Below the pieces are notes generated by a model. It saw nothing but the letters and a program-made list of their open reading frames with translations, did not search any database and was not told where the DNA came from. Made by a program: the position numbers and the translations under genes. From an uncultured Verrucomicrobiota bacterium (GTDB taxonomy: Bacteria > Verrucomicrobiota > Kiritimatiellia > CAIQIC01 > Lenti-01): 64,000 bases of DNA. Where the stretch lies: NCBI GenBank assembly GCA_937860055.1, contig CALMBO010000014.1, positions 25,132-89,131 of the forward strand, given 5' to 3'. Position 1 is the stretch's first letter, and the number at the start of each line of letters is the position of its first letter. Below are positions 3,868-21,803 of this stretch, in pieces.

Positions 3868-4109
3868 ATTGTCTCTCCTCTTGATGTCGTCATTTGTGGA
3901 TCTCGCAAATTGCCCATCATGCTGTCAGCCGTAACGATCATTTGCCCCGGCTCGTTCGCCGAATCGAACATCCCTCTGAGTCGGACGCCGATGCCTTTGC
4001 GAACAGGTCGAGGGCGGTGGGCGGGAGCATGTTTCCCGAGCAAACAACTTCCAGTTGAACTCTATCAGGGATTATTCCATATTTATGCCTCCTAGATGAT
4101 TCACCGCCC

Positions 4110-5491: not shown

Positions 5492-5494
5492 GGA

Positions 5495-6400: not shown

Positions 6401-6647
6401 TCTGATTCTCCTTTTGGATTATGAGAATCTTTATACATCGAAAAATGGCCGCCCTTAAAAAATGCGTAAAATAGTTATGCGGATGCGCGGGAAACAAAGA
6501 ATTCCCATGAAAACCCCAATAATTCTGCCGATCTGCCCCCTTCAGTATTTGTGAAATATCCCCCAAGAAATATTTTCGCTGGAAGGACAGGATAAATATT
6601 TGTGAGCACGGAATAACCAGTCATCCAACAAATAGGAGGACTGGAAA
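6401..6647. promoter_or_regulatory. AT-rich divergent intergenic region between the minus-strand cargo operon and the plus-strand RHH/primase operon
   Basis: A 247-bp non-coding AT-rich stretch lies between divergent first genes. An AGGAGG Shine-Dalgarno sequence sits just before the ATG at 6648. Confidence 0.4.
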
Positions 6648-6833
6648 ATGCGTACATCAGAAAGAATGAAGGGTAAAAGACCGGTGCAGGCTGTTGTCAG
6701 CGATGAACAATATCGGCGGTTGCGGATCAGAGCGGCCATGGAATTGACCAGCATCAGCGACTTGATTCGGATTCGACTGGCGGACATCATCGACCCCGAG
6801 GCGGACTTCGCGGCCATGACGGTTCCCCGCTAG
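6648..6833 (+). CDS. ribbon-helix-helix (CopG/MetJ-like) DNA-binding protein
   Basis: 61-aa protein with the pattern KRPVQAVVSDEQYRRLRIRAAMELTSISDLIRIRL, typical of an RHH beta-strand followed by two helices. It sits directly upstream of a primase gene. Confidence 0.6.
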   Translation: MRTSERMKGKRPVQAVVSDEQYRRLRIRAAMELTSISDLIRIRLADIIDPEADFAAMTVPR

Positions 6834-6950
6834 AAATAGAAAGGCCTCCCGCGCAAGAGAGGCCTGAATAGCAGAAACCAACCGGGAAACCGCCTTCGTA
6901 TAACTATTTCATCGTCAGAACATGGTTTCCCTTCTTCCCGGGGAAACAAA

Positions 6951-8684
6951 ATGGAACAAATATCAACCGACTACTCTGCCAAACTAAACGCGGACGCAAA
7001 TATGCTGAAGGAGTTCTTCAGCATGCTCTTTGACCCCGATGAATCCGTATTGATCGTCCCGGGGCTGAATACAGAGAGATTCAAGGCTCTCTGTGCAAAT
7101 CTCGAAGGCTGGCCAAAGGAGATTGGGGGAAGGGAAACCACCTACTTCAGCAAGAAACTAGGCCGCATCCAACCTCGCCGTTATCTCAATCCATTTTCCC
7201 GTTCCCCGACCTCCGCCTCGACCCGGAACCTCGTAGCCCTCCACGAAATAAACCGGCAGGGATACGACATCTATTTCGCCATCAATCCTATGTCCTGCCG
7301 CCGCAGATGTCAGAAGACGGTCACAATGGCGAAACACGTTCTAGTTGAATCGGACACCAGCGATATCGACGCCCAACTTCGCTTTCTGAAGGAATACGAA
7401 GCCAACATCATCTCGGCCGTCCAGTCCGGTGGCAAGTCCATCCACTGCCTTGTTCGCATAGAGCCTTCACGATTGCATCCAGGGGCTGTCGGATGGAGGG
7501 AGGCCTATAGACTTCCCAAAGGCGAGACCAAGGCTCCGTGGGCCGAATACAGGCAAATTGGGGACTACTGGATTGCTGAGGCTCATAAACATGGAATGGA
7601 AATCGACACCGCGGCGGCCCATGACCACTCAAGGGTATCGAGGGTTCCGGGGTTCCTGCATGGCAAAACAGGCCGGAGGGCTGAAGTTGTCAAAATGAAC
7701 CCTATGGCCTCCTGGGACTGGAGGGGATCTGTGAAATCTTCGATGCTTGTGAGGTCGTCGATATTGTCGATATCACCGAATCAAGATGATGATGATTCAT
7801 TTTCAATATTAAATCCGAAAACCGAGTCTTTTTGTGAACTATTGGGGACTTTTGGGGACTTGAAGGAGACTAGGGAGAATAGAGACCCCGCCACGACTAA
7901 TGTTGTGCGCATAATCGGCCCGTATAGCCAGTGCCAACATCATGGAACTAGTTTTCTGGATGTATTGGACGACTTCGGGCGCCTGCGAGAGAGCGGGCTG
8001 CCCGGCCGACATACAAGGCGAAGTATGCATCGAACGCTCTTCGAGGCGGCAAGGGTCTATCGGTGGTCGATTCTTCAGATGGCCAGAGAATGGAGGCGAA
8101 TAATCAAAAGAAATCCGAAAGCAACCGTTGAGTCCGTTAAAAGCGCGGGGAGAGACATGTTGCGGGCGTGGAAAGCAACAGATGGAGTTGGGATCTACCT
8201 GCCCGATGTGACCAAATTGCCAGATCTTGACGATGCTAAGCGGGCGGTGTTGCAGACCCGGCTGGTCGGAATGGGCTGCAATGAGCCAAGGAAAGCCGCC
8301 AGAATCATCGAGCGGGTCATCCTGCCTCTTATCAAGAGCCTGCCGCGCCAATGTCGACAGGGGACTGTAGGCATCAAATCCAGAGCGCTTCGAGAGGCCG
8401 CTCATATATGGGGCCATTCGAGGGATTACAGGCACTTGTGGGAATGGATGCAGAAGGTCGGAATTGTCACCTGCATGAACAGCGATTACGTGCCGGAGAG
8501 TAGAACCCGGCAGTATGGCGTTAACATTCTTCTGGTCATATGGCTCTGCGGCTTCCGCACGGAGGAACTGGTCTGGAACACGGTAGCCAGTAACATATGG
8601 CCAGAACTTGCCCGCATGCGCGTGATCAACGATGGTGCGGTGGACTTTGGGGCTACAGAGTCTGAATTGCATTCAACCGGTTAG
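6951..8684 (+). CDS. primase-polymerase (archaeo-eukaryotic primase superfamily, RepB'-like/PrimPol-like) with C-terminal extension; no helicase motifs
   Basis: N-terminal AEP motifs are present: YDIYFAINP, the acidic motif HVLVESDTSD, and SGGKSIHCLV (sGxG.H). There is no Walker A motif anywhere in the 577 aa. Confidence 0.65.
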   Translation: MEQISTDYSAKLNADANMLKEFFSMLFDPDESVLIVPGLNTERFKALCANLEGWPKEIGGRETTYFSKKLGRIQPRRYLNPFSRSPTSASTRNLVALHEINRQGYDIYFAINPMSCRRRCQKTVTMAKHVLVESDTSDIDAQLRFLKEYEANIISAVQSGGKSIHCLVRIEPSRLHPGAVGWREAYRLPKGETKAPWAEYRQIGDYWIAEAHKHGMEIDTAAAHDHSRVSRVPGFLHGKTGRRAEVVKMNPMASWDWRGSVKSSMLVRSSILSISPNQDDDDSFSILNPKTESFCELLGTFGDLKETRENRDPATTNVVRIIGPYSQCQHHGTSFLDVLDDFGRLRESGLPGRHTRRSMHRTLFEAARVYRWSILQMAREWRRIIKRNPKATVESVKSAGRDMLRAWKATDGVGIYLPDVTKLPDLDDAKRAVLQTRLVGMGCNEPRKAARIIERVILPLIKSLPRQCRQGTVGIKSRALREAAHIWGHSRDYRHLWEWMQKVGIVTCMNSDYVPESRTRQYGVNILLVIWLCGFRTEELVWNTVASNIWPELARMRVINDGAVDFGATESELHSTG

Positions 8685-8900
8685 GGAATCGCTTGATTTT
8701 TGTCCAAGTCCGCGCGCGAGTGGCAAGTTGATTGGGCAGGTGGGGGCGTCAGGGCGGAATGGCCTGAAGAGCGCGTCATGGGGCTTCGTGAGGCTGAAGG
8801 CTGTCAGATCCTAAACGCCCAGCCTTCTCCTGGCACCGAGAAACAGAACCTTCCAGATGTCTGGAAAGTTCGCCACAATGTCGGCATATTGTGGGATTAC

Positions 8901-9950
8901 CTATTCGAACTCGATCGAGTAGACATTCCCTTGCTTGATGGTGAAGAAGCCTTCCCTGCAAGACTTATTACGGGGTTTTCCTCGTTGTGCGGAAGCGATG
9001 ACCGCAAGGTCGAATCCGGCTTGAGCCTCAGTTTTGCTCGCGAAAATGCGATACATACTAAGAAGGGCTTGTTTGTGGATTCCGAGACGTTCCGAGGCGA
9101 TGATGTCCACCAATAAGCCGTAGCCAGACCCTGGGCGGAAGGGATTCTTTGGGTGACGGAGCAGGTTAGCCACAGGAGTTCCCTTGTATGAGCTTTCGGT
9201 GGGATTGCTTTTGGCTGGGATATTCTCGGCAACCGGCTTGGCCTTCTTGGCGGGAGCCATTCTCGCAGGCTTGGCGGGCGGGACCTTTTCCAAGTATTCC
9301 TGCACTGACGCTTTTATAGCGAACGATGCATTTGGATCAAAGATATCCCATCCGCATGCCGGAGGATGTCCATGTTTCTTCCAGTATTCCATGACGGAAA
9401 TCGGAATTTCGGTGGCAAGTCGATAATAGACATCCTTGCCGATGGCCATTTTCTCGACCACCGACCGCCAATTGTTGTCGGGATGCAAGGGGTTGGCCAC
9501 CACGCCAAAGGCCAGATAGAACATTGTAACATCTATTGTGCCGTTGGCACCCATAAGTGTCAGTTTATCAGATGTAAGATGACCATTATTAAGCAGTTCC
9601 CAAGTTCTGGCCGCCTCGGAATTTGGATGATCTAGGAAAGGGTTATTGGTGGCGAGGGGATGCGTTCCAGACTGTTTGGCTTTCACCGGAACTCTGGCTT
9701 TTTGTTTGTGCATATGTACAATCTCGAATGCACTCAATCCAATGTCAATCCTGAACGGAGCCCGCCTGTGATTTCTAAAACAAAACCTTCCCGTCATGAT
9801 TTGATGATAAGGGTGTATGCTGACATTCTTCGGGGCATCCACTATCGCCATGAGTTCGCCAGAAGGGATCCCGTCGTTAGAAATAAATGCGAGGGCATCA
9901 TTGACGCTCTGGGTTCTAATCATGAGTCCTTCTCGGCATTCGAGGCCCAA
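8901..9950 (-). CDS. hypothetical protein (up to 349 aa; true start may be an internal Met near 9797-9851)
   Basis: Long ORF with a Lys/Pro-rich central linker (KAKPV..PAKS). It overlaps plus-strand ORFs at both ends, so the strand assignment is uncertain. Confidence 0.4.
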   Translation of the reverse strand: MGLECREGLMIRTQSVNDALAFISNDGIPSGELMAIVDAPKNVSIHPYHQIMTGRFCFRNHRRAPFRIDIGLSAFEIVHMHKQKARVPVKAKQSGTHPLATNNPFLDHPNSEAARTWELLNNGHLTSDKLTLMGANGTIDVTMFYLAFGVVANPLHPDNNWRSVVEKMAIGKDVYYRLATEIPISVMEYWKKHGHPPACGWDIFDPNASFAIKASVQEYLEKVPPAKPARMAPAKKAKPVAENIPAKSNPTESSYKGTPVANLLRHPKNPFRPGSGYGLLVDIIASERLGIHKQALLSMYRIFASKTEAQAGFDLAVIASAQRGKPRNKSCREGFFTIKQGNVYSIEFE

Positions 9951-10670
9951 GACGGAAGCCTGTTGGTAGATATTCTGGCCAAGGCCTATCGAAAGGCCAA
10001 GAAGAATACGGACGGATCAAATATCCAAAAAGATCTCTCCGCATTTTTTATATCCTATGGAATATTGCCCATTGCACCATTGGGAAGGCCATTCTTAGGC
10101 GAGAACATTAGATTGAATCGGAAAACTGGAATACCGAGTCATAATTATGGAGAAAGCGACCATATTTGGCTGAAAATAGTTTGGAACAAGCTGTTGGCAT
10201 TTGAGATATTTGCTATGGCGGAATTCTCATTGCCTCATCCGATAATGATGCCGGTCCTGCCGCTATCATTGCCAACGACTAAAACAGGCAATAATGATCT
10301 TCGAGAGAATGTCGAGGTAACGCCAACCTCATTGCCTGTGTACATCAACATCCTACAGTCTCCCGAGGTGTTGGCGAACTACATTACTGCTTTTGCGGAG
10401 CAAGGAAGAGAGTCTCGCCTTTTGCAAATGCCAAAACAAGAGTCGGACTATAGAAGCGTTAAGACCGACGAGAGCAAATACGAGCGGTATCTTGATGCCC
10501 TTGATCTGGATTTGAAGTGCCAAGAAGGAGTACCATACGGCGATAAGTATGAATATTTTCAACGATACAACGACTTCCATAATCCAACTGGCGACGCCAT
10601 CATCACGTTTTACAAGGATTCAAGAAGATGTGCCCGGTTGTACCGTGATAAATACCGGCTAATTGTCTGA
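9660..10670 (+). CDS. hypothetical protein (up to 336 aa; alternative start at 9804)
   Basis: Long ORF co-directional with the plus-strand operon. It overlaps the 5' end of the minus-strand ORF at 8901-9950. No recognised domain. Confidence 0.35.
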   Translation: MRSRLFGFHRNSGFLFVHMYNLECTQSNVNPERSPPVISKTKPSRHDLMIRVYADILRGIHYRHEFARRDPVVRNKCEGIIDALGSNHESFSAFEAQDGSLLVDILAKAYRKAKKNTDGSNIQKDLSAFFISYGILPIAPLGRPFLGENIRLNRKTGIPSHNYGESDHIWLKIVWNKLLAFEIFAMAEFSLPHPIMMPVLPLSLPTTKTGNNDLRENVEVTPTSLPVYINILQSPEVLANYITAFAEQGRESRLLQMPKQESDYRSVKTDESKYERYLDALDLDLKCQEGVPYGDKYEYFQRYNDFHNPTGDAIITFYKDSRRCARLYRDKYRLIV

Positions 10671-10827
10671 TCGCCCGCATTTACTCCTGACTCTTTAAGT
10701 TTCCTGTTTCTCGCCTTGATTGTCCTCTCAGGGTGAAGCCAGACGTGTGCCCAATCTCCCCCTAGTGCCGGTCGCTTATGTAATATAGAGACATTAAATT
10801 AGCCACAGTTAACTAAAGGACTGTGGC

Positions 10828-11613
10828 ATGAAAAAGACATCCAAGACGGCGCCGGCAAAAATGGCCGGCAAGACATCTGAGCCCACCGGGCAGACGGCGA
10901 CCACGAAGCGCGCCCGCCAAGTAAAACCTTCTGGATGTCTGGAAGGTTCAGCCTCAAGCGGTCTGCCGAAGAAGAATGCCGACGACATCATCGCCATGCA
11001 TGGCGAAGAGGCCTACAAGTACTACTTCGACAGCGAGGACGGGAAGTATTCTATCGGAGCGGAAGCTGGCGGGGCTACAAAAGAATTGCGGGGGACCGAC
11101 GCGCGCGTACCCAATGAACTCTATGTCTGTCGGGCTCTCTCCCAGTACCTCCAGAAGAAAGGGATAAGGGATGTCTCGTCCTCGACGATCTATGACTGGA
11201 TGCGTTCCGATGAAACCCGCAAGGCGCTTGGCGGTAAAGGCAAGGCTCCCAAAATCTCTATCAGCTTCTATGTAGCCGTCAGCCGGGATGACATCCCAAT
11301 TGAGAAGCGGCGGGAACATCTCGAATATGCGATTAAACATTCACTGACAGTCGGGGGGCTCAAGGATCGTATCTTTGGGAGAGAGGGGGTAAGTGGGATC
11401 GGCGATGGCGATGCTGCAGGCGAGGGGGCCATATCGGACATCGCAACAGCCGAGCGGATTATCAGCGAATCCCGGTCGTTATTGTTGGGCCATTATGAAG
11501 AGTTTCGCTCAATCGATCCCGCGCAGAACAGTAGTTCCATCGCTCTGCTGGAAAACCTAGCAATCTATATCTGGCAACTGCGGGACGATATTGCCAACGG
11601 CGGACCTAAGTAG
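10828..11613 (+). CDS. hypothetical protein (261 aa)
   Basis: ORF preceded by an inverted repeat that embeds the RBS. No recognised domain. Confidence 0.55.
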   Translation: MKKTSKTAPAKMAGKTSEPTGQTATTKRARQVKPSGCLEGSASSGLPKKNADDIIAMHGEEAYKYYFDSEDGKYSIGAEAGGATKELRGTDARVPNELYVCRALSQYLQKKGIRDVSSSTIYDWMRSDETRKALGGKGKAPKISISFYVAVSRDDIPIEKRREHLEYAIKHSLTVGGLKDRIFGREGVSGIGDGDAAGEGAISDIATAERIISESRSLLLGHYEEFRSIDPAQNSSSIALLENLAIYIWQLRDDIANGGPK

Positions 11614-11624
11614 GGGGATGACGA

Positions 11625-12797
11625 ATGAAATCGCTGAAACACATTCCCGATGTATCGACGAAGAACATGGGCAACAAGGATAAGACCGGCGTCCAAGCCG
11701 ACGGCACCAAGAAATCTCTGCTGAAGGCCATTTCTGAAGCCATCGGCGATTGTCCCGAAGGAGTTATCGACCTGACCGCCGGGAGTCTTGCGGTATCCCT
11801 GCATCTGAATTCCATTTGCGGGAAGCGGGTAATCGCCAACGATTGTCGTAAGGCGTCATATTACACGGGGCTGGCCTTTTTCAACAGCGATGGGGTGGTT
11901 ATCGGGGCCAAAGATATCGAACTGCTCCAACATGGTGGTCTTGTCGCCGGTCCCGTAGTCAAACTGCTCGAGTCAGTCTTGGGCAAAAATAACGCAACGC
12001 AATTTGACCGGATCATCCGCAACCTGGGTTGTCTTGCCGGTGCCGGTGCCGAACAGAAGCGTATCATTGCGATAGCCGGCATCCTCCAGGCTATCTCCGG
12101 AGCCCTCAACGTCTACCATCTTCGGGGGGCCAACAGGGACTGCGGTGCCGCCGGGAACGAACATCTCAGGGATGCCGATCTTATCTCCGAATGGCGGGAA
12201 TGGGTCCTTGTCAAGCATCCGGAGATCGCCAAGGGGATTACCCTCGGTTGCGAAATCTACAACGAAGACGCCGTCTCGCTTATGCAGGATAAGAAGCCTT
12301 CAGCATCCTGCCTATATTTAGATCTTCCATACGGAATAGGAAATTATATTGCCGACCTTAAGGTCTTCGAGGACATCTGCAATCTTTGCGAGGGGAAACG
12401 GCCAGGCGACCCGGTATTCGGGCGCCCCGCTCAACCTAAACATCGGTTCGACAACCGCATCGACTACATTGGCAACCTGACGAAGCTGCTTCTGGGGTCC
12501 GACCATATCCCGCGCTGGGTGATTTCCATTAATACAAGTTCGCCCGTTAAGCCCGAAGAGATTGTCAGGATTGTCCGGTCTTTTGGCAGGAAATGCGAAA
12601 TCCGGCGTTACAAGGTCTCCCTGGCAACCAACCGCAAGAGGGCAACTCCCCTCGAAAATTATGAATGCTTGATCATATGTACGCCAGACGCCGAGCTTGA
12701 AAAACAAATTTCAGGCATTCGCAGTCGTTTCGAATCAATGGCCAGTTCCCGCCGTCTATTGTCTCCGAGTACGGGGAACAAACAGGAGCGCAAATGA
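11625..12797 (+). CDS. N6-adenine DNA methyltransferase, Dam-like (alpha-class) candidate
   Basis: An N-terminal AdoMet-binding-like block (VIDLTAGSLAVSLHLN) resembles Dam FxGxG. A downstream DPPY-type motif reads CLYLDLPYGIG. The motif order (FxGxG then DPPY) fits the D12/Dam class. Confidence 0.55.
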   Translation: MKSLKHIPDVSTKNMGNKDKTGVQADGTKKSLLKAISEAIGDCPEGVIDLTAGSLAVSLHLNSICGKRVIANDCRKASYYTGLAFFNSDGVVIGAKDIELLQHGGLVAGPVVKLLESVLGKNNATQFDRIIRNLGCLAGAGAEQKRIIAIAGILQAISGALNVYHLRGANRDCGAAGNEHLRDADLISEWREWVLVKHPEIAKGITLGCEIYNEDAVSLMQDKKPSASCLYLDLPYGIGNYIADLKVFEDICNLCEGKRPGDPVFGRPAQPKHRFDNRIDYIGNLTKLLLGSDHIPRWVISINTSSPVKPEEIVRIVRSFGRKCEIRRYKVSLATNRKRATPLENYECLIICTPDAELEKQISGIRSRFESMASSRRLLSPSTGNKQERK

Positions 12798-12906: not shown

Positions 12907-13218
12907 ATGAAAAAGATACAAGACGGGCTCAAGTACGACACCGAAACGGCGACCCTTGTCGCAGAAGACTGCAACGGGCACGACCGTAGCAATTACAACT
13001 ACTGGACAGAGCAACTCTACCGCACACAGAACGGTCGGTGGTTCGTGTACAAGGCTGGCGGGGCCAACACCCAGTATATGGTCAAACTCTGCGATGGGCG
13101 AGGCTTCGGAGAGTCCATTGAAATCCTCGACGATGAGGCAGTCAAGGAGTGGCTCGAAGAGCACAACAAGGGCGAAGCATACGAGAAGTACTTCGGCAAC
13201 GAAATCAAGAATGCATAA
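12907..13218 (+). CDS. small hypothetical protein (103 aa)
   Basis: A good Shine-Dalgarno sequence (AGGACGAGGAAG) precedes the ATG at 12907. The longer 12697 start lacks an RBS. No motif. Confidence 0.4.
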   Translation: MKKIQDGLKYDTETATLVAEDCNGHDRSNYNYWTEQLYRTQNGRWFVYKAGGANTQYMVKLCDGRGFGESIEILDDEAVKEWLEEHNKGEAYEKYFGNEIKNA

Positions 13219-13281: not shown

Positions 13282-14109
13282 ATGAAATCACATAATCAGA
13301 TCAAAGAATCGAAAGTACACCCCCGTCCCGCCAGCGGAACTGGCGAATGGGCAGAGGAAAACATCAACATTCAGACCGGCTGCAACCGGGACTGCAAATA
13401 TTGCTATGCCAAATGCATGGCGGTTCGGTTCCGCCGCGCGACACCAGAATCGTGGCCCGACCAGGTTGTTGATGAGGCCAAGGTAAAAAAGCATTACGGT
13501 AAGTCGAAAGGCCGGGTTATGTTTCCCTCGACCCACGACATCAGCCCCGAAAACATCCAAGACTGTCTGCAGGTCATGGATTGTTTGCTGAAGGCCGGTA
13601 ACGACATCCTCGTTGTCAGCAAGCCCGAACTAGCCTGCATCAAGAGCATCTGCGCCAGATTCATAAACAATAAGCGACAGATACTCTTCAGGTTCACCAT
13701 CGGTTCAGCGGACGATGCAATTCTCACAAAATGGGAGCCGAACGCATCCTCATTCGGCGAGAGGCTAAAATGTCTCAAGCACGCTTACGCATTAGGCTAC
13801 GGTACTTCAGTCTCCTGCGAACCGATGCTGGATGCCCAGGTTGGCAAAGTCATCAAAGCCGTATCGCCATTCGTCACCGACTCGATCTGGTTGGGTCGGA
13901 TCAATCGGCTCCGCCAGACAATCGCGATCAATTGTCCTGGCGACGAAAGCATCAAAGCGCTGGCGAACCAATTACTGGCAGAGCAGACCGACGACTGGAT
14001 TCTGGCTCTGTATAATAACTTCAAGAACAACCCAATTATTCGATTCAAGGACTCCATCAAGAAAGTGGTGGGTCTTATAAGGCCGACAATAAAAGGGTTG
14101 GACATATGA
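13282..14109 (+). CDS. radical SAM protein, SplB/COG1533-like (DNA repair photolyase-type)
   Basis: CxxxCxxC motif embedded as GCNRDCKYCYAKC, matching the GC...C.YCYA pattern of COG1533. Size is about 275 aa. Stop overlaps the next start. Confidence 0.6.
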   Translation: MKSHNQIKESKVHPRPASGTGEWAEENINIQTGCNRDCKYCYAKCMAVRFRRATPESWPDQVVDEAKVKKHYGKSKGRVMFPSTHDISPENIQDCLQVMDCLLKAGNDILVVSKPELACIKSICARFINNKRQILFRFTIGSADDAILTKWEPNASSFGERLKCLKHAYALGYGTSVSCEPMLDAQVGKVIKAVSPFVTDSIWLGRINRLRQTIAINCPGDESIKALANQLLAEQTDDWILALYNNFKNNPIIRFKDSIKKVVGLIRPTIKGLDI

Positions 14110-14957
14110 ATACTATGGACGGGAGAGATTCCCGGCAGGAGACAAGAAGCAAAACCTCTGACAACTCAGGGGATGACCAAAAGACAGAAAGAGAAGCCAT
14201 GAAAAAGAAAAATGCGAAAAAGATGAATAACTCAATGAACATCAAGAAACAGGAGGATGGTATGGGCAAGCAAGATGCGAATGGTGAACGCTTGGGTGAT
14301 TGGTTGAAGCGGGAAGAAGAATGTAAGCAGGCGTGGTATGCATTCATTGCAACCCACGAAATACCCGATGAAATTCCGACAAGACCAGACATGGTTTACG
14401 CCAACGAAGGATGGAAAGGCTGGCAAGATTGGCTGGTGTCGCCTGATTCGAAAGGAAATATGGCCAGAACGGTCAAGGAACCTAATCTGCCAACTCCCGA
14501 CGAGTGCTTCATCTCCGTAGTATTCGACGAATGGCTGAAGGACAGCCATTGCCTGGACTCCATGGAGGTGTGGGATGCCGACCCGAAAAGGCCGTTCCGT
14601 TTCAATGCAATCATAGAATTCACCACCCATCAGGGGCTTTCAAATGGCAGTGACCTTGGCTTTCTGATGGTTCAAGAGGCAATGAGTCGCATTATGGAAA
14701 TTGGCCATTCTGCCGGACTCTGTACCTGCTGCGTGGTTCAAGCGGTCGGACAGGTCAGTCTGAAGAAAAGCGACGGGAATGCCTTTGCGAAGGAACGCCT
14801 GGTTGACAACGGGATGGACGAGAAAGATGCCGAGGTGTTTCTCCGCAGCGTCTCGTTGTATCTCAATGTCATTAGCGACGAATGGCCGTTTAAGTATGTC
14901 GGCCCGAGCGAGACATCTGATGACAAGGCAATGGATTCTGATGGAGGCCATCCATGA
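14106..14957 (+). CDS. hypothetical protein, paralogue A of an unrecognised family (basic disordered N-terminus)
   Basis: Shares the blocks EWLKDSHCLD..WDADPKRPF.FN and EWPF.YVGPS..DD.A with the ORF at 15417-16127. Confidence 0.6.
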   Translation: MNTMDGRDSRQETRSKTSDNSGDDQKTEREAMKKKNAKKMNNSMNIKKQEDGMGKQDANGERLGDWLKREEECKQAWYAFIATHEIPDEIPTRPDMVYANEGWKGWQDWLVSPDSKGNMARTVKEPNLPTPDECFISVVFDEWLKDSHCLDSMEVWDADPKRPFRFNAIIEFTTHQGLSNGSDLGFLMVQEAMSRIMEIGHSAGLCTCCVVQAVGQVSLKKSDGNAFAKERLVDNGMDEKDAEVFLRSVSLYLNVISDEWPFKYVGPSETSDDKAMDSDGGHP

Positions 14958-15175
14958 GCGATAAGAAACTGATCTACAGGGCAACAAAGGCTTACTACCA
15001 GCATTGCCTCCGCAATGGACAAATATTCAGCCAGCCCGACAAGGGGCTCTCGGAGGTGGATGGCGACTATGTTGTTCTTCGCAACTGCGATGGAGTGCTG
15101 GCGTTGTATTGGATTACGGACAATGGACTTCATTTTGTCGAACACTCGGATTCGGAGGCTAAGGAATATGTTTGA
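14954..15175 (+). CDS. small hypothetical protein (73 aa)
   Basis: ATGA start/stop overlap with the upstream gene. Confidence 0.4.
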   Translation: MSDKKLIYRATKAYYQHCLRNGQIFSQPDKGLSEVDGDYVVLRNCDGVLALYWITDNGLHFVEHSDSEAKEYV

Positions 15176-15416
15176 GAAGGCAAGCAAGGTCTCCGAGGCC
15201 TTAAGCACCTCCAGCTCCCCATTGGGTCGTTGGCTCTGCAAAGATCTCGACTCAATGGGACCCCTAGGCCAACTGGCCTCTCCGCTGTTCAAGGCCGGCG
15301 CCTCTTCGCTGCCTATGCAAAGGACTTAGAAATCTATTAAGGCAGGAAAGCCAGCGAAAAGCCCAACAGCTCGCCCTCGGCACTCTGCATCGGTCTGCCA
15401 ATAGGTCAGAAAGAAA

Positions 15417-16127
15417 ATGAGGAGAAAAATGAAAAACAAAAAGAGCGCCAACATGGACTCGGGTGCAAAGACCGACATCAAAGCGATAAGAAAACCTAAA
15501 GACATTCATGCTGGAGTAGGAGAACTGGAAGAAAGACTTGAGCGTCTTCTTGGCTTGTTCCGGAATGTTCCAACGACATCTATTGGTTGCGGCGAAGAAA
15601 GCGCATTTCAAGCCGTCCAGAATGTGATTGATAGTCTAAAATATGCGCTTTCAACCTGTGAGGTTGTTGCAAATCAATGCTTCGTATCTGAGTTAATCAA
15701 CGAATGGCTGAAGGATAGCCATTGCCTCGATAACCAGGATGCGTGGGACGCTGATCCGAAAAGACCATTCCCATTCAATGAGGTTATGGCCTTCATTGAC
15801 AAACATGGGCCATTCGATAGCAAGGATCTCAGAACCTGGATGACCGGAGTGGCGCTCAGGCGCATGGTCGTCATTGGGCGCTCGGTGGATATCAGTAGAG
15901 CCCTTGGGCTGATTCGGGTGGTCGGACAAGTTAGTCATGGGAAAAGCCGGGAGATCTCCAAGGCGATGGATTATCTTGGCGAAGCTGGACTATGTGCCAG
16001 TGAGGCAGATGAGTACCTGCGTTGCGTTTCATTGTACCTCAAAGTCTGCCGTGGCGAGTGGCCGTTTGACTATGTCGGCCCGAGCCAGTCGGCAGACGAC
16101 GAGGCCAACTCAAGGTCTTCCCCATGA
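15417..16127 (+). CDS. hypothetical protein, paralogue B of the same unrecognised family
   Basis: Carries the same conserved blocks as 14106-14957 (EWLKDSHCLDNQDAWDADPKRPFPFN ... EWPFDYVGPSQSADDEA). It has a basic N-terminus. Confidence 0.6.
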   Translation: MRRKMKNKKSANMDSGAKTDIKAIRKPKDIHAGVGELEERLERLLGLFRNVPTTSIGCGEESAFQAVQNVIDSLKYALSTCEVVANQCFVSELINEWLKDSHCLDNQDAWDADPKRPFPFNEVMAFIDKHGPFDSKDLRTWMTGVALRRMVVIGRSVDISRALGLIRVVGQVSHGKSREISKAMDYLGEAGLCASEADEYLRCVSLYLKVCRGEWPFDYVGPSQSADDEANSRSSP

Positions 16128-16223: not shown

Positions 16224-16757
16224 ATGTCGAATGTATGTAGAAATCAAATACTAGTCGTAGGTCCTACCCCGGGCCTCGCCCGGTTCAAGCGGGAAGCCTG
16301 TAACTTCAAGTCCTACGACGATCCGCACGTCGATCTGCGCATGGACAAACTTATTCCACTGTCAGTCCTCTCAGCCAGAGAGCGCGAATGTTTTGGTTGC
16401 TACGGAGATGTCGGTGGTACCCGACTCAGGTTTAGAGATTCAAAGTCCGGCTTTGGCTGTCTGGACTTTAAATTCGACTCTTCGGATTGGGCACCAATTG
16501 AGTTCCTACAGAAGACATCTGAACTTTATCCAGATCTGGAATTTCATCTCATTCATACTGTAGGAGATTCTTGCCGTGCAGGAAAAGTCACATATTTGGC
16601 CGGGAAGCCAATAAATGAAGTCCGGGTGGCGTACATCGATCCCGATGACTGTCTCGATGAATACCTAGATCGACCCGGCCTGGTCCCATGGATGGAAGGC
16701 CTGTTCAAAAATCCAGATTCTCCTATGCCGAATCACAATGAGGGCGACCCTGAATGA
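16224..16757 (+). CDS. hypothetical protein, member 1 of a second paralogue pair
   Basis: Strong RBS (AAAGGAG). An upstream TGTATAAT extended -10 lies at 16189-16196. The N-terminal N.C.N.L.V.G block and the C-terminal YP.L.F.LI...G block are shared with 16920-17441. Confidence 0.55.
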   Translation: MSNVCRNQILVVGPTPGLARFKREACNFKSYDDPHVDLRMDKLIPLSVLSARERECFGCYGDVGGTRLRFRDSKSGFGCLDFKFDSSDWAPIEFLQKTSELYPDLEFHLIHTVGDSCRAGKVTYLAGKPINEVRVAYIDPDDCLDEYLDRPGLVPWMEGLFKNPDSPMPNHNEGDPE

Positions 16758-16919: not shown

Positions 16920-17441
16920 ATGCCTAACTACTGCGAAAACCACTTAACCATCACAGGCCTTCGCAAGGACCTTGAAGTCTTTCGCGACAGCGCTGCTTTA
17001 CTAGAAGCGTCTTCCGAGGGTGATGAGGCTTCCCCCTTTTGCTTCAGCAAACTAGTGCCGGTCCCGGAACCCCTATTCGATATCAAGGATTATGAATACG
17101 ATTGGAAGGAGGAGCATTGGGGATGCCATCGGTCTGCAGAAGACGTCGATTGTTTCCTGTTCTGCGACGAAAATGGAAGAGGGCAGCTTGTCTATGAGTT
17201 CCTTACTCCCCGGTCGTGTCCTGTTAAGTTCATCGAGGGGATTTCGGCTAGATATCCGAACCTGACATTCTCCTTGATTGCCTTTATAGGGGAAGTCCAG
17301 TCTGCCGCGCTATATATCGCCCGTCGCGGCATCATATTTACCGAAATTGTGGGACATTACGAAGCGTCTCTGATGGATGATGCCTTTCAGGAAGGGCCGT
17401 ACACCTCATGGCGATTTATTCCGCCCCAGGAAGGCATCTAG
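16920..17441 (+). CDS. hypothetical protein, member 2 of the second paralogue pair
   Basis: RBS AAAGGAGAAA. An upstream GGTATAAT -10 lies at 16884-16891. Sequence blocks are shared with 16224-16757. Confidence 0.55.
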   Translation: MPNYCENHLTITGLRKDLEVFRDSAALLEASSEGDEASPFCFSKLVPVPEPLFDIKDYEYDWKEEHWGCHRSAEDVDCFLFCDENGRGQLVYEFLTPRSCPVKFIEGISARYPNLTFSLIAFIGEVQSAALYIARRGIIFTEIVGHYEASLMDDAFQEGPYTSWRFIPPQEGI

Positions 17442-17447
17442 CTGAAG

Positions 17448-17480
17448 GCCACCTGACCCATGCTCCGCACCCTCCAGCCC
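17448..17480. repeat. about 33-bp intergenic motif (copy 2)
   Basis: Matches 16817-16850 with a few mismatches and one indel. It starts 7 nt after the stop of the upstream gene. Confidence 0.6.
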
Positions 17481-17551
17481 CAAGCCCCCAGACGGACCTT
17501 TTCGAAAATCCACAACAGCGTTTAGGTGGTTCCGGAGGCTGAAAAAGGCCG

Positions 17552-19225
17552 TTGGCGACGGCTGCAGAAATGGACATGAAGAAAGGCAAAAAGAAGCGAG
17601 GCATTTGGCAGGACTTCCGCCCCTGTGACCCTGAGGGGAAGGCGTCGGCCGTCTACATTCGCATCTCCCGCGACGACGCCGGGGCGAAGAATCCCAAGGA
17701 GGCCAAGGAGTCCGCCCGGGTCCAGCAGTCGAAGTGCGAGGCCTACGCCAAGGAAAGGGGCTGGGCCGTCCGGCTCTATCAGGACATCAACCTTTCGGGC
17801 TTCGACGACGAGGGGCGTCCCGATTTCCAGCGGTTGCTTGCCGACATAAACGCAGGCCTCATCCACTCGGTCATCGTACTTGAGCCCAAGCGTCTAGCCC
17901 GCGACAACTCGATCATGGACGCGGTCGTCAAGGAATACCTCTATCCGAACGGGATCAAGCTCCATGGAGTAATGAGCCCGATCGACATCACGAACGATGA
18001 CGGGCTCTTCATGCTCGGCATCGAAATGGCCTTTTCCCGTAAGGCGATTTCGGAGCAGCGCAAGAAGTCCATGGCCTCCATCGACAGCCAACTGAAAGAA
18101 CACACCTTCATCCCCAGGCCATGCTACGGCTACCGGCGAGACGAGAAGGGGCGGATCCATGTGGTGGAGTCCGAAAAAGCGGTGATCCTGGAGATGTACC
18201 GGATGTGTCTCAAGGGCGACTCGATGAACGAGATCAGCGAATATTTCAACCGAGCCGGCGTCCCGGGCAAGCGGGGGGCTAGGTGGTGGACCCACCGGCA
18301 GATCAAGATCGTCCTGACCAACCCGGCCTACGTGGGCAAGATCCGCTACCGGGGCGTGCATGAGACCCGGTTGATCCCCAAGATGGTGACCAAGGAGACG
18401 CAGGACTCGGCGGCGGAGATGCTGGCCATCAGGTCCCACAAGCGGGCGCCATCCAAGCGGCACCTCTTGAGCGGGCTGGTGACCTGTTCATATTGCGCTG
18501 AAAAGGCGAGCAGGGGCGAACGGGCCTATCCGGCGATGGTCCTGAACATCCAGACGCAGGGCCCCAAGGGAGAGAAGAAGAAGTACGCCTATTTTTTCTG
18601 CCAGTCCCAGAACCGGGGTGTGTTCCATTGCGAGTCGCCCAGGGTTCCGGAAGCCGCCTTGGACGCCATTGTCGAAGGCACCATCGTCCCTTATGTCCTG
18701 GACAGGTATTCGAGGCAGATCGGCGCCGACTCGCACCAGGAGACCCTCAAGAGGCTGGAGGCGGCGAGGGGGCGGGTCCGTCTCGTCGAGTCACGCAACA
18801 AGGAGATCGAGGATTCGTTCGCCTCCGGGGAGATGGGGAAACTGGAATACCTTCGTCTGAGGGACAAGAACCAGGCGAAGTCGTCGGTTGCGAGAGAGGA
18901 GATATCCGTTTTGCTCCAGATGGCCGAGTCGGAAGACCCGAACAAGGTTCAAGAGGTCGTGGATGTCTTGCAAAGATGGCAGGAGATGCCCATGGAGAAA
19001 CGGCGGGACGCCATCCGCACCTTCATCGAGTCAATCGAGGTTTCCGCCGAGTGGGTGACCTTCCATATCAGGCCCGTCGGGGGCGACAAGTGGTCGTTCA
19101 ATGTCCGACTGGAAACCGTGCGGAGATACCAGGAGAAGCCCATAGGGGATCTGAAGAATCATATGGAATGGACGCTGGGGCAGGCGGGGTATGCTAACCA
19201 GGAACCTTGTCCCAATGTCGGTTGA
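17552..19225 (+). CDS. large serine recombinase (integrase)
   Basis: N-terminal resolvase-type catalytic region with the serine motif AVYIRISRDD, followed by a long recombinase domain and a C-terminal Cys-rich zinc ribbon (CSYCAEK...FFCQSQNRGVFHCESP). Length is 557 aa. It lies at the junction with host DNA. Alternative start at 17573. Confidence 0.85.
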   Translation: MATAAEMDMKKGKKKRGIWQDFRPCDPEGKASAVYIRISRDDAGAKNPKEAKESARVQQSKCEAYAKERGWAVRLYQDINLSGFDDEGRPDFQRLLADINAGLIHSVIVLEPKRLARDNSIMDAVVKEYLYPNGIKLHGVMSPIDITNDDGLFMLGIEMAFSRKAISEQRKKSMASIDSQLKEHTFIPRPCYGYRRDEKGRIHVVESEKAVILEMYRMCLKGDSMNEISEYFNRAGVPGKRGARWWTHRQIKIVLTNPAYVGKIRYRGVHETRLIPKMVTKETQDSAAEMLAIRSHKRAPSKRHLLSGLVTCSYCAEKASRGERAYPAMVLNIQTQGPKGEKKKYAYFFCQSQNRGVFHCESPRVPEAALDAIVEGTIVPYVLDRYSRQIGADSHQETLKRLEAARGRVRLVESRNKEIEDSFASGEMGKLEYLRLRDKNQAKSSVAREEISVLLQMAESEDPNKVQEVVDVLQRWQEMPMEKRRDAIRTFIESIEVSAEWVTFHIRPVGGDKWSFNVRLETVRRYQEKPIGDLKNHMEWTLGQAGYANQEPCPNVG

Positions 19226-19317
19226 CAGACCCCCTTCTGGGGCTTAATCTGCAATCACTCTATATAAGGTATAGACCACTCTAACCCCAATATGGCATCT
19301 AACACATAGAATTACCA

Positions 19318-20313
19318 ATGGGTTACAGTTTACACCACAGGGGATATTATTCCGACGTGAAGGGGCAGGAGTTCGCGCGTCGCGCGATCGAAGTGGCGGT
19401 GGCCGGTGGCCACAATATCCTCCTGGTGGGGCCGCCGGGCACGGGGAAATCCATGCTGGCCAAGCGGGTGCCGACGATCCTGCCGCCGCTGGGGCTGGAA
19501 GAGGCGCTGGAGACGACGAAGATCCACAGCATCGCGGGGGTGCTGCCGGCGCACCAGGCGGTGGTGGGGGGTCGGCCGTTCCGGTCGCCGCACCACACGA
19601 TTTCCGATGCGGGGCTGCTGGGCGGCGGCACGCATCCGCTGCCCGGCGAAGTCAGCCTGGCGCACAACGGGGTGCTGTTCCTTGACGAGCTGCCGGAGTT
19701 CCACCGCAACGTGCTGGAGGTGATGCGCCAGCCGCTGGAGGATGGCGTGGTGTCCATTGCGCGCGCGGCGGCTTCGGTGACGTTTCCGTGCCGGTTCATG
19801 CTGGTGGCGGCGATGAATCCGTGTCCGTGCGGGCATTTCGGGGATGCGAAGCGGGAATGCCGGTGCACGCCGGTCCAGATGCAGCGCTACCGAAACCGGA
19901 TTTCGGGGCCGCTGCTGGACCGCATCGACATCCACGTCGAGGTGCCGGCGATGGAATACCAGCAGCTGGCGTCGCTGGAGAAGGGGGAGTCCTCTTCGCA
20001 GATCCGGGAGCGGGTGGTGGCGTCGCGGGCGGTTCAGCGGGAGCGGTTCGCCAAGGGCCGGGGGGCGCATGCGATCCACTGCAACGCGGGGATGCGGGCC
20101 AAGGACGTGCACAAGCACTGCATGCTGGACGATGCGGCGCAAAGCCTGCTCAAGGCCGCGATGGCCGACCTGCACCTGAGCGCCCGCGCCTATGACCGGA
20201 TTTTGAAGGTAGCCCGGACGATCGCGGACCTGGCGGGGGAGGGCGACATTGCCGCCGACCATGTCGCCGAGGCCATCCAGTACCGCTCCCTGGACCGGCA
20301 ATACTGGACCTGA
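19318..20313 (+). pseudogene. comM: comM (Mg-chelatase-like AAA+ competence ATPase), 3' fragment; 5' part displaced by element insertion
   Basis: The 331-aa ORF aligns to the ComM/YifB C-terminal two-thirds only, beginning at [29 protein letters not shown] (Walker A). The N-terminal domain of about 170-190 aa is absent. The first codons are AT-rich junction DNA, and the GC switch occurs at about 19350. Confidence 0.75.
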
Positions 20314-20399
20314 GGCCGCACAGGCCGACAATCCTTGACAACAAGGGCCGCATTCGCTCCAATTCCGCGTTGGATATCCGATTACACAAGGAGGCCCCA

Positions 20400-21803
20400 A
20401 TGGCATTCAAGGTCAACATCGTCGGCATCGTGGCATGGGTTTTGGTGGTGGTTCTGGCCATCGCGGCGGGAGTGCTGGGATTTCTGGGCCAGCAACAGGC
20501 GGGCAAGGCGGCGGGATTGCGCGATGCGCTGGTGCAGGTGGCTGCGACGGCGGGGGTTCAGGAGTTGAAGCCGGCGGAAGCGGCGCCCGAAGCCGCTCCG
20601 GCGGAAGGAGAGGCGGCCGCCGCCCCGGCGGCGGCGCAGCCGCTGACGGCGGATGCGCTGAAGGACACGGCGGTGCTGGCAACCGCCGTGCAGCAATTGC
20701 AGACGGCCATCCAGGTGACGCAGCAGGAACTGGCGACCACGAAGGATTCCCTGACGGCTTCGCAGATGGAAGCTTCCAACGCCAAGACCGAATCGGCGGC
20801 CTTGTCCCAGAAAGTACAGAAACAGACGGCGGCGGCGGAGGCGGCAACCAAGGACCTGGCGGCGAAGGGCGAAGAAGTCGCGGCCGCCAAGGCGGCGGCG
20901 GAGAAGGCGGGCCAGGAATTGCAGGAAGCCAAGCAGTCCGCCGAAAAGCAGAAGGCTGAGATGGAAGCTTCCCTCGAGGACTTGAAGGCGCAGATGGCGG
21001 AGGAGACCGCCCGCCTCCAGGCGGAGCTGGAAGCGGCCCGGCAGGAGGCGCAAGCCACCACGGAACAGGCGGCGGCACCCGAAGCCGTCGAAGCCGCGGG
21101 AGAGGAAGGGGATGCCGTGGCCATGGAAGACGTGGTCATGGAAGAGGCCGTTGCCGCAGAGCCGGAGATGGCTGCCGAAGAGCCGGTGGCGGAGCCGGAA
21201 GCGGTAGAGGAAGAGAAGCCGGGCCGGGTGATCGGCCAGTCGCAGATGTTTTCGCTCATCCGTTATTCGGAGGAGGACCAGGGCTTGTTCCTCCGCTTGC
21301 TGGACGGGCAGACGTTGACCTATCGGGAGGTTCCTCGGGATGTCTATGACCAGCTGGTCGGCGCGGAGGACAAGCTGGACATGATCTACCGCTTCAAGAT
21401 CCAGGGCGCATTCAAGAGCCTGCCTCCGGACAGCACGGTGGTGCGCAAGTATTGGAAGGGACAGCGCTACAAGCCGGCGAAGAGCGATGTGCGCGTGATC
21501 GAGCCGGAGGCCCCGCTGGTCATCGTGGACGAGCAGCCTGCCGCCGAAGAGGCCGCTCCCGCCGAAGCCGTCGTGGCCGAGGCTCCCGCGGCGGAAGAAG
21601 CGGCTCCTGCCGCAGAGGCGGCCCCCGCAGAAGCTCCTGCCGAGACCCAGGCCCCCGTTGCGGAAGAGGCTGCTGCACCTGCTGCAGAGGAGGCTCCGGC
21701 GGCCGAGGCTCCTGTCGCAGAGGAGATCCCCGCCGAGACGTCTGCGCCGGAGGGGGAAGCCGCCCCGGCCCCTGCGGAGGAGGCGGTTCCGGCTTCGAAC
21801 TGA
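20400..21803 (+). CDS. membrane-anchored Ala/Glu-rich coiled-coil protein with KTSC-like domain
   Basis: AAGGAGG RBS before the ATG at 20400. N-terminal TM helix (IVGIVAWVLVVVLAIAAGVLGFL). Long A/E/K/Q-rich coiled-coil and PAEA repeats. A KTSC-like block reads FSLIRYSEEDQGLFLRLLDGQTLTYREVPRDVYDQL. Confidence 0.7.
   Translation: MAFKVNIVGIVAWVLVVVLAIAAGVLGFLGQQQAGKAAGLRDALVQVAATAGVQELKPAEAAPEAAPAEGEAAAAPAAAQPLTADALKDTAVLATAVQQLQTAIQVTQQELATTKDSLTASQMEASNAKTESAALSQKVQKQTAAAEAATKDLAAKGEEVAAAKAAAEKAGQELQEAKQSAEKQKAEMEASLEDLKAQMAEETARLQAELEAARQEAQATTEQAAAPEAVEAAGEEGDAVAMEDVVMEEAVAAEPEMAAEEPVAEPEAVEEEKPGRVIGQSQMFSLIRYSEEDQGLFLRLLDGQTLTYREVPRDVYDQLVGAEDKLDMIYRFKIQGAFKSLPPDSTVVRKYWKGQRYKPAKSDVRVIEPEAPLVIVDEQPAAEEAAPAEAVVAEAPAAEEAAPAAEAAPAEAPAETQAPVAEEAAAPAAEEAPAAEAPVAEEIPAETSAPEGEAAPAPAEEAVPASN

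Follow-up and report, generated by a model that had tools for sequence, protein, structure and literature searches.

An orphan family of small acidic proteins, present in two divergent copies in an integrative element of a Kiritimatiellia-like bacterium, with a possible anti-defence role

INTRODUCTION

Among described systems, the anti-restriction proteins ArdA, Ocr and ArdB/KlcA are among the closest to the locus reported here, which lies in a window of 64,000 nt (the whole stretch of DNA that was analyzed). Like these proteins, the present family is small, acidic and apparently non-enzymatic, and its genes are mobile-element genes located beside those of orphan DNA methyltransferases, with which they are presumably expressed. 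However, neither sequence nor fold similarity connects the family with ArdA, ArdB/KlcA, Ocr or any Acr. In contrast to ArdA and Ocr, ORF1, ORF2 and 41 aligned members matched no Pfam or PADLOC profile, and the family fold does not resemble the solved ArdA or Ocr structures. ArdA and Ocr have a strongly acidic, DNA-mimic surface; for the family, acidity was assessed over the core sequence (pI 4.1–5.3, net charge −5 to −19).

The acr-aca arrangement offers another parallel. In short-form elements, a conserved HTH_17 gene is preceded at 8–15 nt, or overlapped, by a highly variable gene for a small acidic protein, and family alleles have been swapped while the HTH gene stays 92–95% identical. Unlike in acr-aca loci, an integrase gene overlaps the end of the family-linked HTH gene, which looks like a classical Xis/AlpA gene, and the window copies have no HTH gene downstream. 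The variable genes also form one family with an almost invariant N terminus of ~45 residues, whereas Acr families are unrelated.

As with the moron/ea-type genes and recombination directionality factors (RDFs) of temperate phages and islands, the family gene is the last before xis-int at the element end. It differs from Xis/RDF genes in having neither HTH_17 nor a known RDF domain, HTH_17 being encoded by a separate downstream gene, and in not being co-inherited with the recombinase.

Orphan methyltransferases cluster with anti-defence genes on mobile elements (PMC11541004). The anti-defence islands of plasmid leading regions described there resemble our elements in combining orphan methyltransferases with uncharacterized small genes on one strand. 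In contrast, the elements studied here are small and integrative, have no detected conjugation genes and no definable oriT or leading region, and contain no known anti-defence family.

RESULTS

The ORF1/ORF2 pair belongs to a mobile element that has inserted into the genome of an uncultured Kiritimatiellia-like bacterium, and is flanked by a DNA methyltransferase gene and the gene of the element's integration enzyme. Both ORFs exist as initially annotated, and the features of the region are as follows.

11625–12797, + strand: D12-class-like DNA methyltransferase, 390 aa (PF02086, E 5e-5; phrog_27806; PADLOC MTase_II)
12907–13218, + strand: 103-aa ORF, first gene of the inserted block, function unassigned
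13282–14109, + strand: radical SAM protein, 275 aa, directly upstream of ORF1 (PF04055, E 6.6e-9)
14106–14957, + strand: ORF1, family member with N-terminal extension; maximal frame 283 aa, or 252 aa from the probable start at 14199
14481–14915, + strand: conserved acidic all-alpha core of ORF1, residues ~126–270 (motifs DEWLKDSHCLD, WDADPKRPF and WPF.Y; pI 4.45)
14954–15175, + strand: 73-aa ORF without family match, overlapping the ORF1 stop codon by 4 nt
15168–15329, + strand: 53-aa ORF without family match, with gene calls in identical and related contigs
15417–16127, + strand: ORF2, second family member; maximal frame 236 aa, or 232 aa from the probable start at 15429
~15672–16106, + strand: ORF2 core
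16224–16757, + strand: 177-aa protein that opens a second pair of paralogues, distantly DUF1281_C/Api92-like
16920–17441, + strand: 173-aa protein, second of the DUF1281_C/Api92-like pair
17552–19225, + strand: large serine recombinase, located at the element's right end (PF00239, PF07508, PF13408; phrog_95, E 4e-77)
19318–20313, + strand: host comM/yifB-like gene without N-terminal domain, probable insertion target

No restriction partner of the methyltransferase was detected nearby, and the radical SAM protein weakly matched rSAM mobile pair B. The 173-aa protein is 74% identical to a 174-aa protein of element L005; in related elements, homologues of the 177-aa protein are encoded between the family gene and xis. 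At the comM/yifB-like gene, the probable insertion target of the element, G+C rises from 50–53% to 61–68%. A tandem-repeat scan and an Rfam scan of the region returned nothing, and predicted promoters and terminators were no more numerous than in shuffled sequence.

The blocks EWLKDSHCLD, WDADPKRPF and EWPF.YVGPS were seen in both ORFs, within a common C-terminal domain of ~150 aa. BLASTP with compositional adjustment aligned residues 132–275 of ORF1 with residues 86–230 of ORF2, with 65 of 145 positions identical (45%) and an E value of 2e-41, and thus showed that the two are true homologues. At the DNA level, the main shared block is only ~73% identical with many synonymous differences, which indicates that the motif is maintained by protein-level selection rather than by recent gene conversion. 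The adjusted E value and the synonymous differences, together with the lack of tandem repeats, rule out low-complexity, compositional or chance similarity as the source of the shared blocks.

The translation start of ORF1 is probably M32 (nt 14199), since in element L099 the long frame of an allele 93% identical to ORF1 is interrupted by a stop at codon 29, and, of 12 changes between the two in codons 1–31, 10 are non-synonymous. The resulting length of 252 aa is also that of homologues and of other gene calls. For ORF2, the probable start is nt 15429, which closely follows an AGGAG. At these revised starts, both N termini are Lys-rich (MKKKNAKK... and MKNKKSAN...), as initially described, but an overall basic character holds for the ORF2 extension alone (~80 aa, pI 9.7); residues 1–125 of ORF1 have a pI of 5.95. 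The N termini had also been called disordered, and here AF2 predicted low-confidence helices in the extension, which give no clear verdict on disorder. The N-terminal tail is missing from most family members, Lys-rich extensions being limited to window-type proteins. This distribution and the acidity of the conserved domain lend no support to the initial suggestion that basic tails bind nucleic acid. As a search query, the ORF1 extension matched a single near-identical fragment. Assignment of this extension to the INT_rpt module (PF14882) was rejected, as no match was obtained even at E ≤ 10. The sole PF14882 match (E 0.073) fell in a 110-aa protein of element L009, which shares the short motif RPD.VYA.E..GW.

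The 73-aa ORF, which is 100% conserved in L099/L100, had been described as translationally coupled between the two ORFs. It does overlap the ORF1 stop by 4 nt (ATGA; 14954 versus 14957) but is coupled to ORF1 only, because the 53-aa ORF and non-coding DNA separate it from ORF2.

The family is a genuine orphan, real and rare. A set of 5.8 billion proteins yielded ~50 family clusters and one of 1.84 billion yielded 16 representatives, and, consistent with the initial description of the family as unrecognized, no library or structure search that we ran returned a relative. Family members occur in wastewater and digester metagenomes. Profiles from Pfam, PHROGs, NCBIfam and PADLOC matched neither ORF1 and ORF2 nor any of the 41 aligned members; a sequence-profile search of the PDB found no relative, a Foldseek search of the full-length model against the PDB found no fold match, and no viral fold matched the family model. 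Nor was a relative obtained by tblastn against annotated phages and plasmids, or when GTDB species representatives, IMG/VR and JGI metagenome contigs were scanned by pattern. When the most distant members were used to build a profile, it retrieved just 4 proteins, none of them new.

AF2 modeled the ORF1 core as seven helices (pLDDT 83, pTM 0.77). Core pI is 4.45 for ORF1 and 5.05 for ORF2, and all 33 core-only proteins have a pI of 4.1–5.3 and a net charge of −5 to −19; moderate acidity is common in cytoplasmic proteins. The N-terminal ~45 residues are almost invariant. Strictly invariant residues across the family are W156, W260 and P261 only, with C149 nearly so, and no catalytic-type residue is invariant. 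In distant members H148 gives way to E, K, R or A, and in L099 to P. A C-x-C-C motif found in the main clade is missing from ORF2 and from the divergent P0035–P0043 clade. With few invariant residues, a replaceable H148 and no family-wide C-x-C-C, the family has the look of a binding protein and not of an enzyme. Its omega values (0.29–0.64, against 0.07–0.27 for neighboring genes) indicate a gene that is coding and less constrained than its neighbors. Pairwise omega never exceeded 1 on meaningful change counts; for ORF1 versus the L099 allele, the count is just 9 non-synonymous to 1 synonymous.

The pair had initially been read as a tandem duplication followed by divergence. This does not hold: ORF1 and ORF2 fall in separate deep clades, and this placement, together with the ~73% DNA identity, rules out a recent tandem duplication or gene conversion. 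The ORF1 core is 61–64%, and up to 80%, identical to single-copy proteins of 155–162 aa from other elements, whereas its identity to ORF2 is lower, at 45%. The related element L097 carries the ORF2 type alone, directly after the methyltransferase, which indicates that the block from the 103-aa ORF through the radical SAM gene and ORF1 to the 73- and 53-aa ORFs is an insertion. A radical SAM gene also precedes the ORF1-type gene in L099. Since ORF1 arrived within the inserted block, the pair did not arise by duplication in situ.

The family is exchanged between elements as whole alleles, uncoupled from the recombinase. In elements L010, L012 and L101, xis-int is 92–97% identical (dS 0.18–0.36), whereas the family proteins are just 41–46% identical, with dS saturated from codon ~49 onward. 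Conversely, L005 and L010 have family proteins that are 81% identical and integrases that are unrelated (22%). A sharp recombination joint was visible in the DNA at the 3′ end of the family gene. Fast evolution in situ was rejected as the source of the allele divergence, since saturated dS points to allele replacement.

The position of the family gene was constant across 12 element variants, and one gene position was found throughout the ~50 clusters. It is co-oriented and tightly packed with a string of genes that contains methyltransferases, and is the last or next-to-last gene of that string before the recombination module. DNA methyltransferase genes were found upstream on the same strand, within 6 genes, in 8 of the 10 informative variants, a neighborhood that the initial annotation had proposed to look for; L099 and the P0034 contig have none within ~4 kb upstream. 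Radical SAM neighbors, also named there, occur only in the window lineage (the window and L099). Among the neighbors, no restriction-enzyme domain was identified. In 10 of the 12 variants, genes for HTH_17 (Xis-like) and a tyrosine integrase lie just downstream, directly or after one gene, and the spacing between the family gene and HTH_17 is a gap of 8–15 nt or, in the most distant members L094 and L095, an overlap of 41 nt. In the window, the serine recombinase, ~1.4 kb downstream of the family and probably inserted in comM, replaces HTH_17 and the tyrosine integrase, and the family gene is retained.

The proposal that the family is mobile-element cargo is borne out: in Kiritimatiellia-like PVC bacteria, a lineage of small integrative elements carries it as a standard accessory gene. 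Besides the family protein, the elements of this lineage encode a Rep protein or primase, RNase H, DNA methyltransferases (two or three) and either Xis-Int or a serine recombinase. The lineage did not turn up in the phage, plasmid and IMG/VR collections that were searched and appears to be undescribed so far. Since all known family members belong to this one related lineage, the methyltransferase neighborhood may be due to common descent and not to a functional connection.

DISCUSSION

Our best guess, a tentative one, is that the family is a protein-binding anti-defence or establishment factor. ORF1 and ORF2 would be two anciently diverged alleles or paralogues of a small, acidic, all-alpha cytoplasmic orphan family that may act by binding another protein and not as an enzyme. 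Most probably, such binding would neutralize a variable host defence (restriction or another nuclease-based system) during establishment of the element, and could thereby complement protective methylation by the neighboring orphan methyltransferases. The N-terminal helix-loop (DEWLKDSHCLD...WDADPKRPF) and the C-terminal WPF.Y would provide the structural frame, with the variable helices 3–6 as the target-specific surface. Two divergent copies might widen the target range, and the Lys-rich N-terminal extensions could tether window-type proteins to DNA. The population genetics agree with the initial suggestion of a specificity or anti-defence locus, in that deeply diverged alleles have been swapped between near-identical backbones. 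The acidic core, the methyltransferase neighborhood, the retention of the gene where a serine recombinase has replaced HTH_17 and the tyrosine integrase, and the acr-aca-like arrangement of short-form elements also speak for this reading. Against an anti-defence role, the fixed position in every element is more like that of a backbone gene than of a typical, patchily distributed anti-defence gene, and the very high conservation of the N-terminal 45 residues is unusual among known anti-defence proteins. The two variants lacking a nearby upstream methyltransferase, the commonness of moderate acidity and the pairwise omega values also count against it.

The family may, again tentatively, represent a new fold class of mobile-element inhibitor, in which an almost invariant N-terminal module of ~45 residues is joined to a C-terminal body exchanged as a cassette. 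Several ancient allelic lineages would be maintained and swapped by recombination at a fixed site beside the recombination module, the site would serve as an anti-defence or inter-element specificity locus, and the window element would stack two specificities. If the protein is an inhibitor or specificity determinant, it would be a structurally new family from Kiritimatiellota/PVC bacteria, whose mobile-element biology is almost unexplored; the fixed hot spot between orphan methyltransferases and xis-int could then be mined for further accessory genes. At present, the family is well-characterized dark matter: it is real and has a clear evolutionary pattern, and its function is a guess.

The shuffling of ancient alleles among near-identical backbones is also the classic pattern of an immunity region. 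The family could accordingly be an element-specific regulatory or immunity determinant (an anti-repressor, an anti-sigma-like protein, or an incompatibility or exclusion factor) that binds a regulator of its own or a competing element, with specificity set by the variable helices. We consider this unlikely. The gene position fixed in every element would fit, as would a weak match to the KilAC/ANT antirepressor domain (E 0.0036) in the usual upstream partner, a protein of 303–329 aa in L005, L009 and L012. However, structural and Pfam matches were all below significance, no repressor gene was identified in the elements, and the acidic pI speaks against direct DNA binding. The upstream partner, moreover, is not conserved, being a radical SAM protein or a protein of 173, 65 or 105 aa in other variants, and does not co-vary with the family allele. 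Homology of the L005-type 303-aa partner to the radical SAM protein of the window was rejected on comparison.

A role in excision or integration, in which the protein would be co-translated with xis-int and assist or modulate the directionality factor or the recombinase, seems improbable to us. It would account for the HTH_17 (Xis/AlpA-like) and tyrosine integrase genes that come next, or after one intervening gene, in 10 of 12 variants, for the tight spacing (8–15-nt gaps; 41-nt overlaps in L094 and L095), and for the location of the window family 1.4 kb ahead of a serine recombinase gene, the directionality factors of serine recombinases being unrelated orphan proteins. However, co-adapted partners would be expected to travel together, whereas alleles are uncoupled from xis-int (41–46% versus 92–97% identity and, conversely, 81% versus 22%) and the gene has a sharp recombination joint at its 3′ end. 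In addition, one family serves both tyrosine- and serine-recombinase elements, and Pfam detected no HTH or known RDF signature in it.

The conserved H-C dyad and the C-x-C-C motif of the main clade raise the prospect that the protein binds a metal or cofactor and serves a DNA-modification pathway as an accessory subunit or enzyme, acting with the radical SAM protein or the methyltransferases through S-H-C and CxCC; this we regard as very doubtful. Methyltransferases are usually found upstream, the radical SAM-ORF1 pairing recurs in L099, and the maximal ORF1 frame overlaps the radical SAM stop codon by 4 nt. That coupling is doubtful because the likely ORF1 start lies 90 nt past the radical SAM stop. 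The radical SAM gene is, furthermore, limited to the lineage of the window and L099, distant members have other residues in place of H148, ORF2 and the P0035–P0043 clade lack CxCC, and no enzyme-like fold was matched.

That the ORFs are non-functional remnants, or similar in composition merely, is already refuted: in the maximal ORF1 frame, a non-coding look is limited to codons 1–31, whereas the family has an E value of 2e-41 despite compositional adjustment, at least 40 homologous clusters with conserved motifs, a confident AF2 fold, omega below 1 and synonymous differences within the conserved block.

The ORF1 and ORF2 locus

The proteins that share the C-terminal domain (the core) of ORF1 and ORF2 form a family that is unrecorded, in a locus of familiar kind, and both the family and the cassette-like exchange of its alleles are real and new. 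Orphan accessory genes are common on mobile elements. The two genes lie in an element of lower G+C content (50–53%, against 61–68% beyond) that reaches to ~19.2 kb and whose left end is beyond the window start; genes for capsid, tail or conjugation were not detected in its left arm. The recombinase at its right end is followed by a comM/yifB-like gene that lacks the N-terminal domain, which indicates that the element is inserted in comM. The host is an uncultured bacterium of Kiritimatiellia/Verrucomicrobiota type, whose NuoF-like protein shares 88–89% identity with proteins from MAGs of that kind. From the primase-like gene to the recombinase, the plus-strand genes form one string.

Features of the window element and its right junction (window positions)
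2380–2919, minus strand, RNase H (left arm)
5495–6400, minus strand, mycobacteriophage GP88-family protein (left arm)
6951–8684, plus strand, primase-like 577-aa protein (left arm)
then, plus strand, 336-aa protein, 261-aa protein, D12-like methyltransferase, 103-aa protein
13282–14109, plus strand, radical SAM protein
14106–14957, plus strand, ORF1 (283-aa maximal frame)
then, plus strand, 73-aa ORF and 53-aa ORF
15417–16127, plus strand, ORF2 (236-aa maximal frame)
16224–16757, plus strand, 177-aa protein
then, plus strand, 57-aa protein
16920–17441, plus strand, 173-aa protein
17552–19225, plus strand, large serine recombinase
ending at 20313, comM/yifB-like gene, starting at the AAA+ domain

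Several proteins of the left arm (809–8684) have no family match. The radical SAM protein is weakly similar to “radical SAM mobile pair protein B” and also to DUF5131 (phage Gp37/Gp68) and the PADLOC candidates PDC-M41B and PDC-M30B.

The blocks that the initial annotation had quoted are present in both ORFs, and residues 132–275 of ORF1 align with 86–230 of ORF2 at 45% identity (BLASTP with compositional adjustment, E = 2e-41). Because the main block is only ~73% identical at the DNA level, with numerous synonymous differences, and a scan of the region found no tandem repeats, the similarity reflects true, old homology under protein-level selection rather than composition. The same DNA divergence rules out recent gene conversion.

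The most likely start of ORF1 is nt 14199: homologues and other gene calls are 252 aa long, in the 93% identical allele on contig L099 a stop at codon 29 interrupts the long frame, and 10 of 12 differences from L099 in codons 1–31 are non-synonymous. For ORF2 the most likely start is nt 15429, with AGGAG just upstream. After this revision both N-termini are still Lys-rich, as first described, but an overall basic character (pI 9.7) is confined to the ORF2 extension; the shared domains are acidic (pI 4.45 and 5.05 for ORF1 and ORF2). The 73-aa ORF, described initially as coupled between the pair, does overlap the ORF1 stop by 4 nt, but the 53-aa ORF and a gap separate it from ORF2.

A very small family without named relatives

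A two-sequence profile matched 42 clusters in an indexed search of 5.8 billion proteins, mostly of 155–162 aa, the length of the shared domain alone, and none carried a name or Pfam domain. When a 44-sequence profile was run exhaustively (HMM) against 1.84 billion representatives, just 16 proteins reached E ≤ 1e-3, which makes this a very small family. Pfam, PHROGs, NCBIfam and PADLOC, against which all 41 aligned members were also scanned, yielded no relative, and neither did PDB sequences, annotated phages and plasmids, GTDB species representatives, IMG/VR or the JGI contigs. The impression that the family was unrecognised was thus borne out.

Conservation is bipartite. An N-terminal segment, PTPDECFISVLLDEWLKDSHCLDS.EAWDA.PKRPF, covering helix 1, a loop and short helix 2, and a C-terminal segment, R..SL.LNV..G.WPF.Y, are strongly conserved, and helices 3–6 are variable. 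Family-wide, invariance is limited to two Trp and one Pro, the His of the S-H-C motif is substituted in distant members, and ORF2 lacks the main-clade CxCC motif, which together speak against enzymatic activity. Core pI values are acidic across the family (4.1–5.3). The L099 allele (5065–5916) has Pro for the S-H-C His, at a contig coverage (1.5x) low enough for sequencing error to be possible.

Gene neighborhood and origin of the pair

Twelve distinct element variants with family members were recovered. In 10 of them an HTH_17 (Xis/AlpA-like) gene and a tyrosine integrase (together xis-int) come immediately downstream of the family gene or are separated from it by one DUF1281-like gene. The next gene lies 8–15 nt away, or overlaps by 41 nt in the most distant members. 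Of the 10 variants with enough upstream sequence, 8 encode between one and three co-oriented DNA methyltransferases, no more than six genes upstream. The suspected proximity to methyltransferases therefore holds, but that to radical SAM genes is restricted to the window and the L099 lineage. These elements are ~10–12 kb long and carry a RepO-like or primase-type gene, and no structural or conjugation genes were detected in them.

Several tyrosine-integrase elements adjoin host ruvB and a short (211–219 aa) Phage_integrase-family gene (L005 1–1263, L009 1164–2782, L097 1–585), which suggests a common insertion site, unlike the comM site of the window. In L010, a gene for a 1274-aa PKD-domain protein is flanked by two related elements in inverted orientation (1387–11952 and 16983–20471). 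Both encode an integrase as well as C5 and D12 methyltransferases; within the contig part seen, only the first carries a family gene.

The initial annotation had proposed tandem duplication followed by divergence, which does not agree with the tree: ORF1 and ORF2 fall in separate deep clades (neighbor-joining). The ORF1 core is 61–64% identical to the single-copy short proteins (core alone) of L005, L009 and L010 and up to 80% identical to the family protein P0009, against just 45% to ORF2. L097 is syntenic with the window (primase 60%, ORF2 68%, 177-aa protein 72% identical) and has the ORF2 type by itself, directly 3′ of a D12-like methyltransferase, so that the block from the 103-aa gene through the radical SAM gene, ORF1 and the 73- and 53-aa ORFs represents an insertion. 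The pair was built up by module accretion, not local duplication.

The 73- and 53-aa ORFs, for which no family match was found, are 100% identical between the window (14954–15329), L099 (5913–6288) and L100; around them identity drops to 93% (ORF1), 83% (ORF2) and 66% (173-aa protein), a sharply mosaic pattern. Directly 3′ of ORF2, the 177- and 173-aa proteins form a second paralogue pair (23% identity, E = 2e-8) with a sub-threshold DUF1281_C/Api92-like match. L005 and L097 each have a single homologue (74% and 72% identical), placed between the family gene and HTH_17, so this gene too is doubled in the window element.

Exchange of alleles

Among L010, L012, L101 and L102, Xis and integrase are 92–97% identical, and the family proteins are 41–46% identical (except L010 versus L102, 79%). 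The reverse case is L005 and L010, with 81% identity between their family proteins but unrelated integrases (22%). Along the DNA of the elements with near-identical xis-int, identity is 85–100% over most of that module, drops to 25–55% precisely where the family gene ends (3′), returns to 72–93% in the first ~125 nt of the gene and is low again upstream. Synonymous divergence between L010 and L012 is 0.24–0.36 in xis-int, 0.55 in family codons 1–48 and saturated from codon 49, which indicates replacement by an anciently diverged allele and rules out rapid local evolution.

Omega was 0.29–0.32 for close family alleles and 0.60–0.64 for ORF2, compared with 0.07–0.27 for neighboring genes and ~0.46 for DUF1281-like genes; the 9 non-synonymous and 1 synonymous changes between ORF1 and L099 are too few to read. 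The conserved 5′ island (L010 10001–10125, L012 4112–4236, L101 822–946) has third codon positions 60–93% identical between otherwise unrelated flanks, and may mark a recombination joint or act in cis, as DNA or RNA.

Possible functions

Members are small and acidic, look non-enzymatic and are co-oriented with orphan methyltransferases, and several ancient allelic lineages are shuffled among backbones independently of recombinase type. A protein-binding factor under frequency-dependent selection therefore fits best. The leading, tentative reading of its role is an anti-defence or establishment factor. Orphan methyltransferases cluster with anti-defence genes on mobile elements (PMC11541004). 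As every member of the family comes from a single element lineage, the neighborhood may be inherited, and a fixed position and near-invariant N-terminal module are atypical of known anti-defence genes. In manner of working, the family would be most similar to the small acidic inhibitors of mobile elements (ArdA, Ocr and Acr types); it resembles none of these in sequence or fold, and it falls outside Xis/RDF and INT_rpt as well.

An element-specific regulatory or immunity determinant is a less likely role. A helper of excision or integration is improbable, since the family gene is uncoupled from xis-int and outlived a recombinase swap. Slightly more doubtful again is a DNA-modification accessory that would partner the radical SAM protein or the methyltransferases, as His and Cys residues are not conserved and the upstream partner varies. 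Non-functional ORFs are excluded.

The ORF1 C-terminus (14922–14957) carries a tail motif, D-S-(E/D)-G-G-(Q/H/P)-(P/Q/S), shared with the family proteins P0009, P0011, P0035, P0044 and P0045. Absent from the 155–156-aa forms, it recurs in distant clades and may be a docking or degradation motif.
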